Below, one piece after another: positions 226 to 7,436 of a stretch of DNA of 7,547 nucleotides. Below the pieces are notes generated by a model that saw only the letters and a program-made list of their open reading frames with translations, did not search any database and was not told the origin of the DNA. Within the stretch, counting starts at the first letter, position 1. Every line of letters starts with the position of its first letter. The stretch spans positions 1 through 7,547 of IMG/VR virus record IMGVR_UViG_2585427710_000007. One strand, written 5' to 3'. Origin of the DNA: a virus (Duplodnaviria > Heunggongvirae > Uroviricota > Caudoviricetes). The translations under genes were made by a program, and so were the position numbers.

Positions 226-2628
226 TTAAAAATCAGCCTGACTCGGGATCAGTTTTTGCCAGATAGCTGAAACGTATTTTGCCTGGTAACGCGCATCGTG
301 CAGGGCATTATGGCGCTCACCCTCAAATGTGATGACACTTCGAGCATCGAAATCCATCACCAGTCCCATAGCAACCATCGTTCTTACATCGCGATCATTG
401 GTGTAACGCCATGGGCAGGGGATCCCCTGCCGTTCATATGAACGGCGTAAAATTACGTTGTCAAAGTTGGCTCCATTTCCCCAGACCTGAACAAAAAATT
501 CACCGGAGTTTTCGTCGATAAATTCCCGTAATTGCAACAGTGCGTCATCCAACGGGATTTCATCGGTCAGAATGGCTGATTGTGCTTCCCGTGACTGTTT
601 CAGCCACCACTTAATGGTGTCCCGATCGATGACTCCGCCCGCGGTTTCCAGATCGATAGTTTTGCTGAATTCTGGCCCCATCTCTCCGGTTGCCGGATCA
701 AAAAACTTACCGGCCAGAGCGTTTATTGGCGCATCAGGATTTTTGCCCATTGTTTCAAGGTCAATCATCAGATGGTGCCACAACCTGCTGGTGGATGTGC
801 TTTCGTGATGACCGTTCACCTTAATTAAGGGATTTGCTGTCTCGCCTGTTTCATTATTGCCATTGGCATGTTGATCGCCTTCGGTGCACTCCTTGTTCGG
901 GTATACGGCACTCTCCATTTCCTCTGGATCTTTCTCCCGGGCTTCATCCTGGCTTTCTTCGTTGAATGTTTCCTGGTATGTTGCGTCGCCCATTACCGCG
1001 CCACAGTCAGGACAGTTGCCGTCGCCGGTCTGACCGCAGGCGGTGCAGACTTTTTCCGGTTCTTGTTGCTCTTCTGGTTCAGGCTGTTTCGTTTCCGGCT
1101 CGTTTTGTTCCGATTCGTGCTGGTTCTGGTTCACAGAATCGCGGGTTTCAATCCCCTTCACCCATTTCGGATCATTCGGGTCGCTAATCCCTTCAACAAA
1201 TTCTCCGTGAGAAGCAGCCAGTAATTTATCTGCATCGACAGGATTTTTGGGGGGAATGTTTTTCCTGGCTTCATGGAGTTCTGCACGCAGTTTCTGATAT
1301 TTCGCATCAACAGAATTTATCTGTGGCTGAGCATCCATCGACTGCGTGTCCTGATTATGTTCAGTTGTATCCGGTTCCACTGCTTCAGTCGTTGCCTGTT
1401 CATCTGCCATTGCGCCAGTTGGCTGCGGTTTTTCTTCATCATCCTGTTTTCCTTCTTTTGTTACACGCTGCGGCATTGGAGCAGAGGAGCGACCGCAGGC
1501 AATATCCACGATTTCTGGATCAGGGTTGGCATGGTCGGTTTCGGTCAGTACTTTGTTCAGATATTCGGTAACACGGTGGGGAGTAGCCTCGATACCAATT
1601 GGTGCTTCTTTCACGGACGCAACCACTATCGCGCGGGAATAATCCAGGTGACCAGGCATGGCGATGAATTTGTCACGAAAAACAGAAAAGGGCGGCTTAT
1701 TCTCTGAAACGATTTCTTCAATGCGTTTGGCGTGTGCCGGATGTGGATTGTAAATATCGATGTCCATTGAACGGGCCAGAACGCCAGCGGCAACGTCACG
1801 TTCCACTGACGCATCATCGTGGACAAAACCTTCACCGCGATCGGTAAGAATTCCTCCGCCAGCATTAGCGCCGGATGGCGTGCGGCTGATGCGTAAAACA
1901 CGATTTCCTTTCATCCACTCTTTTGTCAGCAGACCTCGATCGGTATAGTCAGCGTCCAGGTATGCTTCGAAAAAAGCAGTCATTAACCCCAGATTGGAAT
2001 TAACGGGATTAGGGAAAACTTTGTCTGTGTCGCGTACCAGTTTGTGAAGGTCGCGAATCTCCAGCGGGTCGAGCAGCTTTGTGTTGTGGGAAATAGCCAG
2101 GGCAGTAACAGCAGGCAGTTCTTCAGCTCGTGCGATATGTAATGCCTGAAGTTCTTCCCGTGAAACGTGCGTTACCGGTTTTTCGCTGCCATGTTGCGCA
2201 AGCCAGCGAATGGGCAGTTCCTGACCGGAAATCGGCAGGAGCATATTATCCTCAATCTCAGCCATGTCTTCGCCATTGACGTTGGTATTGTCAGTGCTGG
2301 CAGGTTTGTCCTGAACTGAGGGGGAAGGCGCTATAAATATCATTGTGATGCCATCTTCTCCGCCTTTTTCATAGCGGTTGCAGAATTCGGTATCAAACAC
2401 ACCTTCAGGCGGCAGGTCATTAACAATAGGCAAATTCACGCGAACAGGTTTTTTGAAATCCTCTTCGTCAAATCCAGCATCGTCCATTGCGACAACACCC
2501 CGTGATATTGCAACCGATAATTTTTTTGCTGTGCGCCAGTAAAAACCGCCTTTAATCCCAAGGCGTTTTCTGACTTTGTCATTTTTGGCTTCGTAATACA
2601 GTGCAATTTCTTCTTTATCAGTGCTCAT
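226..2628 (-). CDS. RecE-like (exodeoxyribonuclease VIII-like) protein, 800 aa, with a C-terminal DnaQ-like DEDDh 3'-5' exonuclease domain
   Basis: Track ORF with GAGG 7 nt upstream of the ATG at 2628. N-terminal and central regions resemble my recollection of Rac RecE (for example [27 protein letters not shown]). There is an acidic low-complexity linker and a C-x2-C-x7-C-x2-C zinc-ribbon-like motif ([16 protein letters not shown]). The C-terminus carries Exo I (MIDLETMG), Exo II ([10 protein letters not shown]) and Exo III ([13 protein letters not shown]) motifs. Confidence 0.85.
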
Positions 2629-2720: not shown

Positions 2721-2909
2721 TTATCCAGCCGGTATTTCGTTATTCAGGTACAGCGATACTTTTTTTAACGGGAGACATTCGCCAGAAATTTTTTGCTCGT
2801 CTCTTGCACGGAGGCATGATTCTTTACTGGCATAAATTCCGGTAATCACTTTCTGTGGCTCACCTGTTATCAGAAAAACCGTCATCATCAGTGTAAACGC
2901 TGAACTCAC
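2721..2909 (-). CDS. ydfD: YdfD-like small protein with a hydrophobic N-terminus (lysis-type peptide)
   Basis: GTG start at 2909 with GGAGG 6 nt upstream; GTGA start/stop overlap with dicB. The N-terminus SSAFTLMMTVFLITG is hydrophobic. Sits immediately downstream of dicB, as ydfD does in Qin. Family assignment is from memory and synteny. Confidence 0.6.
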   Translation of the reverse strand: MSSAFTLMMTVFLITGEPQKVITGIYASKESCLRARDEQKISGECLPLKKVSLYLNNEIPAG

Positions 2910-3094
2910 TGCTGCCCTCCGAAAATGCCAAGTTCAAGAAGGGCAATTCTGGAGAGTATGGAATTATCATTGAGAAGATAAGGCTCATATTTTCTCATCC
3001 TGATGGCGTCCTCAGTAAACTCCCGGTTACTGAGCAGAATACCAATATTAAAACACCCTTCAGACGTATTAACGTTTGGTAGTGACGTTTCCAT
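2906..3094 (-). CDS. dicB: Cell division inhibitor DicB homolog (62 aa)
   Basis: ATG at 3094 with GAGGA about 7 nt upstream. The product METSLPNVNTSEGCFNIGILLSNREFTEDAIRMRKYEP... matches my recollection of the DicB N-terminal half (LPNVNTSEGCF, FTEDAI). It lies about 175 nt downstream of a DicF-like element, as in Qin. Confidence 0.8.
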   Translation of the reverse strand: METSLPNVNTSEGCFNIGILLSNREFTEDAIRMRKYEPYLLNDNSILSRIALLELGIFGGQQ

Positions 3095-3271
3095 TATCGC
3101 GTCCTCAACAATGAATTTTGTGATGTGGTGCCTGGTGCCTCCAGGTGACGTTAACCAGTTAACAATTAACGCCGGATTGTTAGTTGATGTCTGTTACGCC
3201 AGTAAAAGACCGCTTGTTTTAACTGTTCCGCGTGCGCTTAGCCGCATTCACCGCATCACAAAATACACTTT

Positions 3272-3311
3272 AAAAATGGCGGATATCCATTTCCGCCGAA
3301 TCACCAGAAAA
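3272..3311 (-). ncRNA. dicF: DicF-like small RNA candidate (shortened variant) ending in an intrinsic terminator
   Basis: Minus-strand sequence UUUUCUGGUGAUUCG-GGCGGA-aauggaua-UCCGCC-AUUUUU. The 5' motif UUUCUGGUGA matches the start of K-12 DicF as I recall it. A 6-bp GC stem (3292-3297 / 3278-3283) with an 8-nt loop is followed by a U-run (3272-3277). Position upstream of dicB matches Qin. The 5' end is not defined. Confidence 0.5.
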
Positions 3312-3652
3312 GTGATAACAGAGGTTGTTGTGGCGGTGTTGTCACTCAGGCGTATGGTCAACCTGACAACCCGGTGCATTTTCTGGAGTAATGGAGGAAG
3401 CCCCAGCCATACTTACCGCCGCGCCATTTCGCGGATTGCCACAACCGGAAGCGCACGATCGAATTAAATTTAACGACGACCTGTACAGAGAGACTAACTT
3501 CGCCGTGCGCTTTCGTGTTATGCCCTGACTTTTCAGGGATATGTTCTTTCAGTAAACTGTCAGTGCCGGATTCTTATCCGTGTCCGGCGCACGACCACAC
3601 GTGACAGCGTGTTGGTCTCCATTTTTAACCCAGAACCTCTATGGAGGATAAA

Positions 3653-3955
3653 ATGCACTCTAAATCAAATCGATATTATGTTCATGTGCAGTTATTTGAA
3701 GCAACAATGGAACAGGAGAAAAAGTTCGAGACTCTGATGCCAAATTTTAAATACTCCAGGATGATTAATGAAGGTGACGTTGAATATAAATTGTTGCCAG
3801 GGGCATACGTTATTCAGTCAACGCTCAATTCGAATCAAATACTTGAACAAACCTTTTCTGTTGCTAATTCAGTTGGTGTTAATGCTCACATTTTTGTTTG
3901 CCCTTATGATGAAAGTGCAACCCTTTTGCCTTGTGCTGATTTTGGCACTTACTAA
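3653..3955 (+). CDS. Hypothetical 100-aa protein; AT-rich moron in reverse orientation within the leftward operon
   Basis: GGAGG at 3643-3647, 5 nt before the ATG at 3653 (the track start at 3641 is less likely). The ORF is visibly AT-rich compared with the flanking sequence. No transmembrane segment or recognisable motif. Product MHSKSNRYYVHVQLFEATMEQEKKFETLMPNFKYSRMINEGDVEYKLLPGAYVIQ... Confidence 0.6.
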   Translation: MHSKSNRYYVHVQLFEATMEQEKKFETLMPNFKYSRMINEGDVEYKLLPGAYVIQSTLNSNQILEQTFSVANSVGVNAHIFVCPYDESATLLPCADFGTY

Positions 3956-4259
3956 CTAAATTTAATTTATGTTCAAGTTCGGCTATTTGCATACGTAGTG
4001 CTTTAACCATTGTTTCATGATAAATCTCACTCACTCCACCTGGGTGTGGGGTGAATTTAGGTGAATAATCTTTGTTTTCAGAACTCAGCTTCTCTTCGTA
4101 CAGCTTGATAAAGGCATTACGCACATTATGGGATATATTGTCGATGGTTTCTTTTTCTACGGTACTCAGGTCAAGAGTCGCCAGTTGAGAACGAACTATA
4201 TTCGCTGCCATTTCCTGGAATGGTACTGGTAAATCTTTAAATTCCATCGTCAACCTCAT
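3879..4259 (-). CDS. Hypothetical 126-aa protein at the ydfB/ydfC position of a dicB-type operon
   Basis: The ATG at 4259..4257 overlaps the ydfA-like stop (ATGA), suggesting translational coupling. An alternative ATG at 4247 has GAGG 6-8 nt upstream. The last 25 codons or so are read antisense to the 3' end of the plus-strand gene 3653-3955, giving a His/Lys-rich tail. Confidence 0.6.
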   Translation of the reverse strand: MRLTMEFKDLPVPFQEMAANIVRSQLATLDLSTVEKETIDNISHNVRNAFIKLYEEKLSSENKDYSPKFTPHPGGVSEIYHETMVKALRMQIAELEHKLNLVSKCQNQHKAKGLHFHHKGKQKCEH

Positions 4260-4411
4260 CAGTCAGTGTTTCTGGCTAACCAGCGACGCGCGCCAGCTTC
4301 AGTTTTAAACGTTTTGCTTCTGGTATACGTCATCGCGGTAAACGTGCCGTCCAGGTTGGAGAATACTCCGCATACCAGAGATTCGTTGTTGCCAAGATTG
4401 AGCGTATCCAT
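4259..4411 (-). CDS. ydfA: YdfA/YdaF-like small protein (DUF1391-type), 50 aa
   Basis: ATG at 4411 with GAGG about 6 nt upstream. Product MDTLNLGNNESLVCGVFSNLDGTFTAMTYTRSKTFKTEAGARRWLARNTD matches my recollection of Qin YdfA. First gene of the leftward operon. Below the ORF-track length cutoff. Confidence 0.65.
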   Translation of the reverse strand: MDTLNLGNNESLVCGVFSNLDGTFTAMTYTRSKTFKTEAGARRWLARNTD

Positions 4412-4640
4412 GTTGACCTCATTTACCCTTAACGCCGGGTCGCGGAACTAAAAACCTGCTGCGCTGTTATACAAAGTGTTCCCGCCGTCATGTTCATACG
4501 CCTCGGGCTGGCTACTTAACCCCTGACCACTGCCGGGTAACTCGAAGTATTGCCCTGCGTTCTGTTGAATGGGGTGGGTTGGTGAAACAAGGATGCACTT
4601 TTAAAGTTATTATGTCAACACTTATAAAGTTAGGTTGTGG

Positions 4641-4669
4641 GCAACAAAAACCGCCTCGAGATGAGACGG
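4641..4669 (-). terminator. Rho-independent terminator of the paaR2-paaA2-parE2-like operon
   Basis: On the minus-strand RNA, a 7-bp GC-rich stem (4663-4669 paired with 4651-4657, one G-U pair) with a 5-nt loop, followed by UUUUUGUUG (4641-4650), starting 12 nt after the parE stop. Confidence 0.6.
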
Positions 4670-4682
4670 CCCTGTGAAAGGG

Positions 4683-4970
4683 TTAGTTCTGCTTGGGGAA
4701 TTGGCGTCTGGCGTGTACTACACTCACGATCTCAATGCTTAAAGTGGCTACACGGTAAAGAATTATATAGTTAGGGTGAGCTACAATCTCACGCAAGCCA
4801 GGTACTCTGTCGCTTGGTGGGTATAAATACGGGTGTTCGGATAACGGCAGCACACACCCCCTTAATCGCTGCCATAAGCGTTCTGCCGCATCTATGTCGA
4901 AACGAGCAATATAACTAGTTATATCATCTAGGTCGGTATCTGCGCTTTCAAGCCATAACACGGGTAACAT
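4683..4970 (-). CDS. parE2: ParE-family toxin (ParE2-like) of a three-component TA system
   Basis: 95-aa ORF, MLPVLWLESADTDLDDITSYIARFDIDAAERLWQRL...HARRQFP, typical of the RelE/ParE fold and matching my recollection of E. coli O157 ParE2. Starts 3 nt after the paaA2 stop. Paralog 1 versus 2 cannot be settled by eye. Confidence 0.85.
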   Translation of the reverse strand: MLPVLWLESADTDLDDITSYIARFDIDAAERLWQRLRGCVLPLSEHPYLYPPSDRVPGLREIVAHPNYIILYRVATLSIEIVSVVHARRQFPKQN

Positions 4971-4973
4971 TTA

Positions 4974-5162
4974 CTACTTACTCCGTTCCTTGCGCATTTT
5001 AGCAAAGCGTTCTGCCATTCTGCGCTCAACCTCGTCATGGGGAATTGCTGGGCGCGGATTTGCAAGGCTCGCTGCTACTTTCGCACGCAGCCATTCGTTG
5101 TAACTGTTTTCTTGTTCAATGGTTTCGAACTCAGAAACCATTGGTGAAAGGGCCGTATTCAT
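4974..5162 (-). CDS. paaA2: PaaA2-like antitoxin (62 aa)
   Basis: Internal ATG at 5162 with GGAGG 6 nt upstream. Product MNTALSPMVSEFETIEQENSYNEWLRAKVAASLANPRPAIPHDEVERRMAERFAKMRKERSK, close to what I recall of PaaA2. The 83-aa track ORF from 5225 is rejected as an overextension into paaR. Confidence 0.85.
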   Translation of the reverse strand: MNTALSPMVSEFETIEQENSYNEWLRAKVAASLANPRPAIPHDEVERRMAERFAKMRKERSK

Positions 5163-5191
5163 GGCACACCTCCGTCTGTGTATGGTGGTCA

Positions 5192-5599
5192 TTATGCTCG
5201 ATGCCCTTTCCGGGCAGCGAGCCATCTTTCAATTGTGCGCTCCATTAACTCTTTTTTGTCTTTCATCTCCTGAAGCATTTGTCCCTGTTCTTCCTCTGGG
5301 AATGCACCAAATGTCTGAAGTAGCTCTCTTTGCTTCGGACCTATTTTCATTGTGTCAGGTACCACAATCTGTTCGTCCTCACTTGGTGGCAACATAAACC
5401 AATATGGAGGGAATCCTGTTACTTCAGAAAGTTTATCAAGATTAGCCATTGATGGGCTTGTGATGCCATGAACCCACTTTTGGACCGATTGTTGGGCAAC
5501 ACCTATTCTGCGGGCTAGTTCTGCTTGCTTAAGCCCTGTTTTTTCCAGCACCAGTTTTATCCGGTACGTGGTTATTTCAAGAGTGGTCATTCGCTTCAT
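5192..5599 (-). CDS. paaR2: PaaR2-like HTH (XRE/CI-like) transcriptional regulator, in the cI position
   Basis: 135-aa ORF with a helix-turn-helix region (LKQAELARRIGVAQQSVQKWVHG). Divergent from the Cro-like gene and first gene of the TA operon. The ATG at 5599 has no clear SD, so it may be leaderless; Met4 is an alternative start. Confidence 0.8.
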   Translation of the reverse strand: MKRMTTLEITTYRIKLVLEKTGLKQAELARRIGVAQQSVQKWVHGITSPSMANLDKLSEVTGFPPYWFMLPPSEDEQIVVPDTMKIGPKQRELLQTFGAFPEEEQGQMLQEMKDKKELMERTIERWLAARKGHRA

Positions 5600-6490: not shown

Positions 6491-7436
6491 ACGCCCGCTG
6501 GTTATAAACACACAGCTGGCGATGAAGATTGGTTTAAACGAAGCCATTGTGTTGCAGCAACTGCATTACTGGTTGAGGGATACCAGTTCCGGCATGGAAT
6601 GTGATGGCGTTCGCTGGATTTACAACACAACGGAACAATGGCTGGAACAGTTTCCGTTCTGGTCAGAGTCAACGTTAAAGCGTGCGTTTGCAAGTCTGAA
6701 AGCGCTGGGGCTTTTGCGTAGCGAAAAGCTCAATAAATCGAAGCGTGATATGACTAATTTTTACACAATTAACTACGATAGCGCGCTTTTAGATGATGGC
6801 AAAGTGAACGAATCCATCGGGTCAAAATGCGCCACTCCATCAGGTCAAAATGACACGATGGAAGAGGTCAAAATGAAACGTTCCATTGGTTCAAAACGGC
6901 CCAATGTCATCAGGTCAAAATGGCCCGATGATCCTACAGAGAATACAACAGAGAATACAACAGAGAATAAAAAACTCTCTTGTCCGGACGCTTCGCAACC
7001 GGACGAGTTGACGGCTGAACAGGCGTTTTTAACCCGCCATCCTGATGCAGTTGTGTTCAGCGTGAAAAAACGCCAGTGGGGAACCCGGGAGGATTTGACA
7101 TGTGCGCAGTGGATCTGGGGGCGGGTTGTAAACCTGTACGAACAGGCTGCCAGTGACGATGGTGAGATCACGCGACCGAAAGAGCCCAACTGGACGGCGT
7201 GGGCCAATGACGTGCGCACAATGCGGATGCTGGATGGAAGAAGTCACAGACAAATTTGCGAAATGTTCAGCCGGGCACAACGGGATCCGTTCTGGATAAA
7301 AAACATCAAGAGCCCGGAAAAACTCCGTGAGAAATGGGATGAACTGGTTATTCGACTGTGGCGTGGTCCCGCGCAGCGTTGCGTGAATCATATTTCTGAA
7401 CCGGATACCGAAATTCCGCCGGGTTTCAGGGGGTAG
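6471..7436 (+). CDS. Phage replication initiator / replisome organizer (lambda O-like) with an internal origin
   Basis: ATG at 6471 preferred over the track start at 6429, which would overlap ydaT by 62 nt. The N-terminal region (LVINTQLAMKIGLNEAIVLQQLHYWL...) is typical of replisome organizer N-domains. Iterons lie inside the gene. Followed 6 nt later by the next gene. Confidence 0.7.
   Translation: MSLLFAERPLVINTQLAMKIGLNEAIVLQQLHYWLRDTSSGMECDGVRWIYNTTEQWLEQFPFWSESTLKRAFASLKALGLLRSEKLNKSKRDMTNFYTINYDSALLDDGKVNESIGSKCATPSGQNDTMEEVKMKRSIGSKRPNVIRSKWPDDPTENTTENTTENKKLSCPDASQPDELTAEQAFLTRHPDAVVFSVKKRQWGTREDLTCAQWIWGRVVNLYEQAASDDGEITRPKEPNWTAWANDVRTMRMLDGRSHRQICEMFSRAQRDPFWIKNIKSPEKLREKWDELVIRLWRGPAQRCVNHISEPDTEIPPGFRG
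6814..6925. repeat. Candidate replication origin: five iterons with about 23-bp periodicity
   Basis: Core GGTCAAAATG at 6820, 6843, 6866 and 6913, plus a degenerate copy GGTTCAAAACG at 6888. Spacing is 23, 23, 22-23 and 24-25 bp, often preceded by CATCA. This is the arrangement of ori-lambda inside the O gene. Confidence 0.7.
6936..6971. repeat. Three tandem 12-bp repeats (ACAGAGAATACA) immediately after the iterons
   Basis: ACAGAGAATACA at 6936-6947 and 6948-6959, then ACAGAGAATAAA at 6960-6971. They encode TENTTENTTENK within the initiator and form an A-rich stretch next to the iterons. Confidence 0.7.

Follow-up and report, generated by a model that had tools for sequence, protein, structure and literature searches.

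What does the short hairpin upstream of dicB in this viral sequence represent, and could it still act as DicF does? DicF is the textbook prophage small RNA that blocks cell division, and in EHEC it ties oxygen sensing to virulence via pchA. The window, meaning the whole 7,547-nt stretch of IMG/VR record IMGVR_UViG_2585427710_000007 that we analysed, carries on its minus strand an element that a first-pass annotation had taken to be a DicF-like small RNA with a shortened body. Judged by its sequence, the element is a dicF-derived allele with a shortened body, whose predicted targets differ from those of canonical DicF and which is unannotated in the main EHEC model strains. Our analysis leans modestly toward a natural short dicF allele that works as an intra-operon terminator and yields a 34–39-nt, seed-only RNA unable to inhibit division.

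The minus strand from 3322 to 3268 reads ...CUCUGUUAUCAC UUUCUGGUGAUUC GGCGGA AAUGGAUA UCCGCC A UUUUU AAAG, and the DicF-like decamer, the GGCGGA/UCCGCC hairpin and the AUUUUU had been read and placed correctly by the first-pass annotation. The predicted short DicF-type RNA (3272..3310, minus strand) is 39 nt long including its U tail and was aligned to K-12 dicF (positions 2383-2435 of the K-12 locus, L002). The 34 nt at 3310..3277 (minus) are the counterpart of the 53-nt K-12 dicF annotation. An earlier estimate of about 40 versus 53 nt was therefore right about a shortened body but imprecise in its figures, which are 34 versus 53 nt, or 39 versus 58 nt with the U tail.

The predicted RNA begins with a 5' single-stranded region of 13 nt, UUUCUGGUGAUUC (3298..3310, minus), in which nt 1–10 are the DicF 5' seed; the decamer tttctggtga at 3310..3301 (minus), in RNA UUUCUGGUGA, is followed by ttc at 3300..3298. 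A terminator hairpin, GGCGGA / AAUGGAUA / UCCGCC (3278..3297, minus), then stands in place of the 37-nt canonical hairpin that bears the ftsZ-complementary loop. Its stem arms are GGCGGA (3297..3292) and TCCGCC (3283..3278), its loop is AATGGATA (3291..3284, minus), and an A at 3277 precedes the T5 tract of the intrinsic terminator (3272..3276, minus), which has the same length as in K-12. A consensus terminator scan called exactly the 3297..3278 hairpin with the T-run behind it; five of its six pairs are G-C, and its loop is 8 nt long. The 39-nt RNA is predicted to fold as 13 single-stranded nucleotides followed by the hairpin, at -11.1 kcal/mol. The segment 3325..3260 folded into two hairpins with an energy of -16.2 kcal/mol; z was -2.05, and 10 of 200 shuffled sequences folded equally well. 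The fold of the short element alone is only mildly unusual, and the case for the element is one of homology rather than structure.

Two further searches concerned the element itself. Within the window, we found no second site complementary to the new 13-nt 5' arm beyond its own gene. A 43-aa open reading frame crosses the element (3379..3248); a coding reading was rejected, as the ATG is not conserved in K-12 or O157.

The homology was assessed in a three-way alignment of 3500..3090 (minus) with the K-12 Qin locus, in which dicF is annotated, and with the O157:H7 copy. Over a stretch running from some 170 nt before the RNA to the start codon of dicB, all three are collinear. A conserved untranslated leader (3311..3477, minus) is identical to K-12 Qin at 136 of 162 positions (84%), and the conserved spacer from the terminator to dicB (3095..3271, minus) is identical at 143 of 165 (87%). 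Between these, the RNA matches K-12 dicF at 31 of 39 aligned positions, and 19 K-12 bases lack a counterpart (2 in the 5' arm and 17 in the hairpin). The parts kept are DicF nt 1–10, the GGCGG...CCGCC stem base and the T5 tract. Nucleotides 11–15 of the 5' arm are changed, with UUC in place of the canonical CGUUU and thus 2 nt missing. The interior of the short allele is not a simple deletion product, having AAAUGGAUAU in place of UAUCAGUUUUACUCCGUGACUGCUCUG. The annotated K-12 dicF itself is UUUCUGGUGACGUUUGGCGG...CCGCCC, 53 nt long, in agreement with the first-pass annotation.

The surrounding genes place the element inside a dicB operon. The dicB gene, encoding a cell-division inhibitor protein of 62 aa, lies at 2906..3094 (minus; Pfam PF05358, 115.7 bits), and RefSeq annotates dicB at an identical sequence in H1. 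The measured distance from element to gene is 177 nt, in agreement with an initial estimate of about 175 nt. A ydfD-like DUF1482 gene follows at 2721..2909 (minus; PF07358, 52.5 bits) as the last of the small genes in the dicB operon, and after it comes a large gene for an Exonuc_VIII/Rv2179c-like exonuclease. On the other side, the first gene of the dicB-type operon is a ydfA-like DUF1391 gene (4259..4411, minus; PF07151, 97.8 bits), and the leftward operon is headed by a DicA/CI-type HTH repressor gene (5192..5599, minus; Pfam HTH_3, 51.2 bits) in the position of K-12 dicA. The role we infer for this repressor is presumably to keep the leftward operon silent in the lysogen. The gene order matches ydfA...dicF-dicB-ydfD of K-12 Qin.

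DicF is made by Rho-independent termination at its 3' end and RNase E cleavage at its 5' end (PMC9438474), a biogenesis that the short allele presumably shares. In the reading we favor, once the repressor was lifted, leftward transcription from the immunity region would either stop at 3272 or read on into dicB. RNase E would cut near 3311/3310, inside the loop of a small precursor hairpin or next to it, and the RNA released would be 34–39 nt long, consisting of the 13-nt free 5' end and the terminator hairpin. Division control would then be left to DicB, and the short RNA would act through its 5' seed at best. Termination at an internal operon terminator together with a cut beside a stem-loop is also how the 3'UTR or intra-operonic small RNAs SroC, CpxQ and MicL are formed, and the same is predicted for the short allele. 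The hairpin almost certainly has a role in cis as a partial terminator ahead of dicB, setting dicB expression, and this role is compatible with RNA-producing and terminator-only outcomes alike.

To describe variation we compiled loci from all fetched sources, mostly by pattern scans of IMG/VR: 111 canonical ones, 48 of the short form and two of a third type described below. The precursor hairpin differs between the two main forms. In the short form it is AUCACU/UUUCU/GGUGAU (3300..3316, minus) and encloses the position equivalent to the RNase E 5' end of DicF. A C at 3312 (AUCAC) together with a C-to-U change in GUGAU produces the 6-bp AUCACU/GGUGAU pairing; this C is present in 48 of 48 short-form loci, whereas canonical loci have A in 110 of 111 and G in one. 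The canonical precursor hairpin (K-12 L002, approximately 2373-2394) is UGUUAUCA/UGGUGACG, with 8 bp including three G.U pairs, in a shifted register. The difference may be relevant to 5'-end processing, and the short-form hairpin, which is modeled as stronger and pairs seed nt 6–11, may hinder RNase E or access to targets.

These observations could also be explained without any regulatory RNA. The dicF body may have decayed so that only an intra-operon terminator is under selection and no stable trans-acting RNA is made, with the retained UUUCUGGUGA riding along with the conserved leader or serving the processing of operon mRNA. We regard this as the main rival, possible if rather doubtful. 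The pattern of variation bears on it in both directions. The short form occurs as seven distinct sequences, which include two loop substitutions and either A or C after the stem; the stem variants GGUGG and CCGCU retain pairing via G.U, and a singleton, GGCAG, breaks one pair. All 37 loci that were found by the hairpin alone share one version of the 19-nt leader-seed pattern, TTATCANTTTTCTGGTGAD, and the 13-nt 5' single-stranded region is likewise invariant in them, whereas the hairpin varies in 8 of the 48 loci found by the seed, which argues against selection on the terminator only. The allele has also been maintained in two species of Escherichia and in several prophage backgrounds, and canonical DicF arises from exactly these signals. 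On the other side, among 29 distinct 430-nt haplotypes, 5 of 26 columns are variable in the hairpin and tail, 13 of 62 in the next 62 nt and 36 of 94 in the upstream 90 nt, so that conservation of the hairpin and tail does not exceed that of the adjoining downstream flank. Since the RNA is no better conserved than its immediate flank and many of the loci are clonal, conservation is no proof of a trans-acting function. In all forms, conservation extends over the entire leader and spacer, and the seed could be hitch-hiking with them.

Other properties of the element likewise fit a decayed body. It is very small, its stronger precursor hairpin would sequester the seed, and the U-rich stretch before the terminator hairpin, which forms part of the usual Hfq-binding module, is weakened to AUUC compared with the canonical GUUU and is followed by a tail of 5 U. 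Two EHEC data sets are also consistent with it. Table S2 of Tree et al. 2014 contains no orphan Hfq peak at Sakai 2.70-2.71 Mb, near 2,707,678, and Neuhaus et al. 2017 list no novel ncRNA in the expected EDL933 range (no ncR27xxxxx), but both results are weak or uninformative because the operon is repressed in culture and canonical DicF is poorly expressed or silent as well. If the RNA is not made, the finding would be one of ordinary mosaic variation of an operon terminator. Separately, we considered whether the hairpin had been borrowed from another phage terminator and rejected this, since 37 of the 38 exact matches to the short hairpin in IMG/VR are in dicF context and the other one is unrelated coding DNA.

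Returning to the reading of a short, seed-only RNA, its predicted pairing with known DicF targets differs from that of canonical DicF, as the first-pass annotation had anticipated. DicF pairs with the ftsZ ribosome-binding site through its 3' region, as mapped by mutation, and with xylR and pykA through its 5' end (PMC5069750). We compared net energies, calculated as the cofold duplex minus both monomers (ViennaRNA); these are predictions, and they were used instead of plain RNAduplex without accessibility, which gave over-extended and uninformative duplexes. For ftsZ, the net energy was -13.9 kcal/mol with canonical DicF and -5.3 with the short RNA, and for manX it was -13.0 (nt 38-53) and -3.1 kcal/mol. 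With the ftsZ-pairing region and the predicted manX-pairing region gone, the short RNA should, on these models, be unable to block cell division or repress manX. Targets of the 5' arm showed smaller predicted differences: xylR went from -15.4 kcal/mol over 11 bp (nt 5-15 with +9..+19) to -9.0 over 7 bp, and pykA from -10.0 to -7.0 kcal/mol. A published 10-codon xylR fusion responds to DicF, and the energy predictions are consistent with that. For pchB of Sakai, the sole pch gene used, the best predicted 5'-arm sites differed between the two forms (+21..+37 against +9..+25) but had similar energies. The remaining UUUCUGGUGA seed and three new bases could support a reduced or shifted set of 5'-seed targets at best.

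It is very improbable that the element is a functionally ordinary DicF whose short body still represses ftsZ and the other known targets. The locus, the first 10 nt and the terminator base are all as in the canonical form, and nt 1-8 could form a weak 8-bp duplex with ftsZ -14..-7; however, the 3' part in which ftsZ pairing was mapped by mutation (PMC5069750) is absent, the predicted net energies for ftsZ and manX drop as given above, and the Rfam DicF model finds nothing.

That model, RF00039, has a gathering threshold of 48 bits, and K-12 dicF, as the positive control, scored 76.7 bits. Searches of 3150-3450 and of 3250-3340 (91 nt) gave no DicF match at the gathering threshold or at E<=10, and the model also misses the short copies of O157 and E. 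albertii. The first-pass annotation had proposed this search and was prepared to give up the DicF identity if there was no covariance-model match and no alignable similarity to authentic dicF copies; the first of these came about, but the similarity is clearly alignable. Among the features by which DicF is recognized, the Rho-independent terminator GGCGG...CCGCC with its U run is present (a scan match, conserved with K-12), and so is the location upstream of dicB and downstream of ydfA-type genes. The 5' arm UUUCUGGUGACGUUU, which pairs with xylR and pykA, is identical at 10 of 15 nt, with nt 11-15 replaced. For the RNase E-dependent 5' end, the sequence context of the cleavage site alone is conserved, and the alignment shows no counterpart of the 3' region that is antisense to the ftsZ ribosome-binding site. 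The DicF-like identity thus stands for the position in the dicB operon and the aligned flanks but does not extend to the ftsZ antisense segment, by which DicF is functionally defined. The element is a dicF locus by descent and position, outside the DicF family as RF00039 defines it.

Other Rfam matches in the region (AgvB, S15 leader, mir-56 and snoRNAs) were weak, with chance E-values. The best of them, RF02702 at 15.2 bits (E 1.8) or 12.2 bits (E 2.8), relates to a reading in which a longer species starting upstream, comprising CACAACA (3332..3326) and two hairpins, sponges GcvB as an AgvB-like anti-sRNA. AgvB and AsxR (RF02702; Tree et al. 2014) resemble the short allele in being very short, prophage-encoded, terminator-ended, modular and found in STEC, and CACAACA lies near the short allele. 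The CA-rich 5' end with two hairpins fits this reading, as does the presence of CACAACA in 39 of 48 short-form loci and in no canonical locus. However, the score is far under the gathering threshold of 56 with E-values expected by chance. The window holds 3 copies of CACAACA where 1.65 would be expected, 9 of the 48 short-form loci lack the motif, and we found no promoter-like site upstream on the minus strand. Genuine AgvB genes belong to the late region, downstream of PR' (PMC4104026), while the element is in the early-left operon. AgvB and AsxR are also separate genes in which the 5' end varies and the 3' part is conserved, in contrast to the constant 5' end and variable hairpin of the short allele. 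Given the chance-level score, the wrong region and a motif at chance frequency, we rejected the GcvB-sponge reading, which we regard as scarcely tenable. The CACAACA motif (3326-3332, minus) equals the GcvB R1 seed target consensus, stands 16 nt ahead of the DicF-type 5' end and drives the AgvB match.

Chance resemblance, in which a DicF-like decamer would be followed only by coincidence by a random GC hairpin and T-run, could draw on a fold z-score of merely -2.05 but is next to impossible and was ruled out by alignment, as a 401-nt region can be aligned over its full length with dicF loci (E ~1e-75 to 1e-148; matches in 4,722 of 5,426 E. coli genomes) and the position relative to dicB is as in K-12.

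The short form is widespread, with the 69-nt query matching 442 of the 5,426 complete E. coli genomes searched; the matches fall at 528 places, each with 90% identity or more. By comparison, the canonical form (87-nt query) was found in 3,976 of the same genomes at 6,702 places and the third form (54-nt query) in 290 at 294 places, mostly in O157:H7. Carriers of the short form were mostly STEC and included nearly every listed O157:H7, with one copy apiece. Using the query with flanks, the O157 short copy was located in prophage Sp14 of Sakai (NC_002695.2, 2,707,190-2,707,910, with the RNA itself at about 2,707,678-2,707,716 on the plus strand) and is also present in EDL933 and 86-24, while Sakai Sp11 and Sp12 carry canonical dicF. 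O157:H7 genomes therefore hold the short allele as well as canonical copies, in line with the earlier remark that such genomes have several divergent copies. In a scan of one genome per GTDB species, real matches were confined to Escherichia and Shigella, and the E. albertii type strain has one short and one third-type copy. A megablast search of INPHARED phage genomes with the short form gave no match.

In the literature, the dicF count for O157:H7 is four copies. Our literature search found no description of a short or variant dicF. The dicF comparison of Balasubramanian et al. was limited to copies more than 99% identical, and the four Rfam-listed DicF copies of EDL933 are 52-56 nt long (PMC5331693), so the 34-nt short allele is not among them and is an additional locus. 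NCBI PGAP annotated no RNA at any dicF locus examined, canonical ones included, and missing annotation at short loci therefore means nothing.

At least three dicF body types circulate in Escherichia prophages. Compared with canonical DicF (RF00039; K-12 b1574), the short allele is alike in locus, leader, spacer, the first 10 nt, stem base and T5, and differs in its length of 34 versus 53 nt, its 6-bp stem with an 8-nt loop and its lack of an Rfam match. In canonical DicF the hairpin is long and imperfect; its UUUUACUCCGU loop is antisense to the ftsZ ribosome-binding site, and its 3' arm is predicted to pair with manX. The third type (UUUCUGGUGACGUUUGGCGGCAUCUGUUUGCCCAUGAACUGAUGUCCGCCC; O157:H7 and E. 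albertii) has the same leader, seed and terminator base as the short allele but, unlike it, retains all 15 nt of the 5' arm and has a long hairpin, for a length of 51 nt. It scores 43.5 bits against the Rfam DicF threshold of 48 and is therefore missed at gathering. Since the leader, seed and terminator base are constant in this third type too, the variation in dicF lies in the hairpin interior. The third-type copies are at 4612-4661 (minus) of an E. albertii sequence (L184) and at NZ_AP018488.1 2029218-2029271 (O157:H7), with the hairpin interior CAUCUGUUUGCCCAUGAACUGAUGU. A fourth, apparently degenerate dicF form (...GGCGUAUUAUUUUAUCCCGCUGAUCCGCUCUGCCACCGUCUUCUU...) lies at approximately 1360-1452 (minus) of a sequence from Shigella flexneri SFBU1023 (L188), with its stem and T-run disrupted.

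As a tentative proposal, and one we hold to be unlikely in its full form, dicF may be a modular small RNA locus with a constant seed and terminator base and an exchangeable interior that provides a second seed, in which case the short allele would be a seed-only DicF. If this were true, the short allele would separate 5'-seed regulation (of metabolic and possibly pch virulence targets) from division inhibition. Sakai, EDL933 and 86-24, which have served for DicF genetics, would carry unrecognised dicF-type loci beyond the four reported (the short form in Sp14 and possibly the third), and extra loci that share the seed could explain residual DicF-like regulation in multi-copy deletion mutants.

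The short allele could also be informative in its own right. As a putative natural separation-of-function mutant, it could reveal which of DicF's activities are in fact kept by the prophage or host. The allele is invisible to Rfam-based annotation, and counts of dicF copies in STEC are perhaps incomplete; studies of DicF deletions may have spared a seed-bearing paralogue.

Several minor features of the region were also observed. The leader (3311-3477, minus) and spacer (3095-3271, minus) are conserved about as well as the RNA itself and match no Rfam family, and palindromic GTTAATTGTTAACTGGTTAAC and CACCTGGAGGCACCAGG are found just ahead of dicB. The conserved leader and spacer may be elements for RNase III processing or for control of dicB translation. 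Between the HTH repressor gene and the ydfA-like gene, the window encodes a ParE toxin (PF05016) and a PaaA2-type antitoxin (PF21217) at 4683-5225 (minus), an arrangement that we take to resemble the PaaR-PaaA2-ParE modules of O157 prophages. In strain 2014C-4587, the dicF region is otherwise identical and the ParE/PaaA2 module is absent. Between the ydfA-like gene and the dicF leader, two open reading frames of 104 aa (3641-3955, plus) and 126 aa (3879-4259, minus), both without Pfam matches, overlap head-on by 77 nt, and in a related strain RefSeq annotates only the minus-strand frame.
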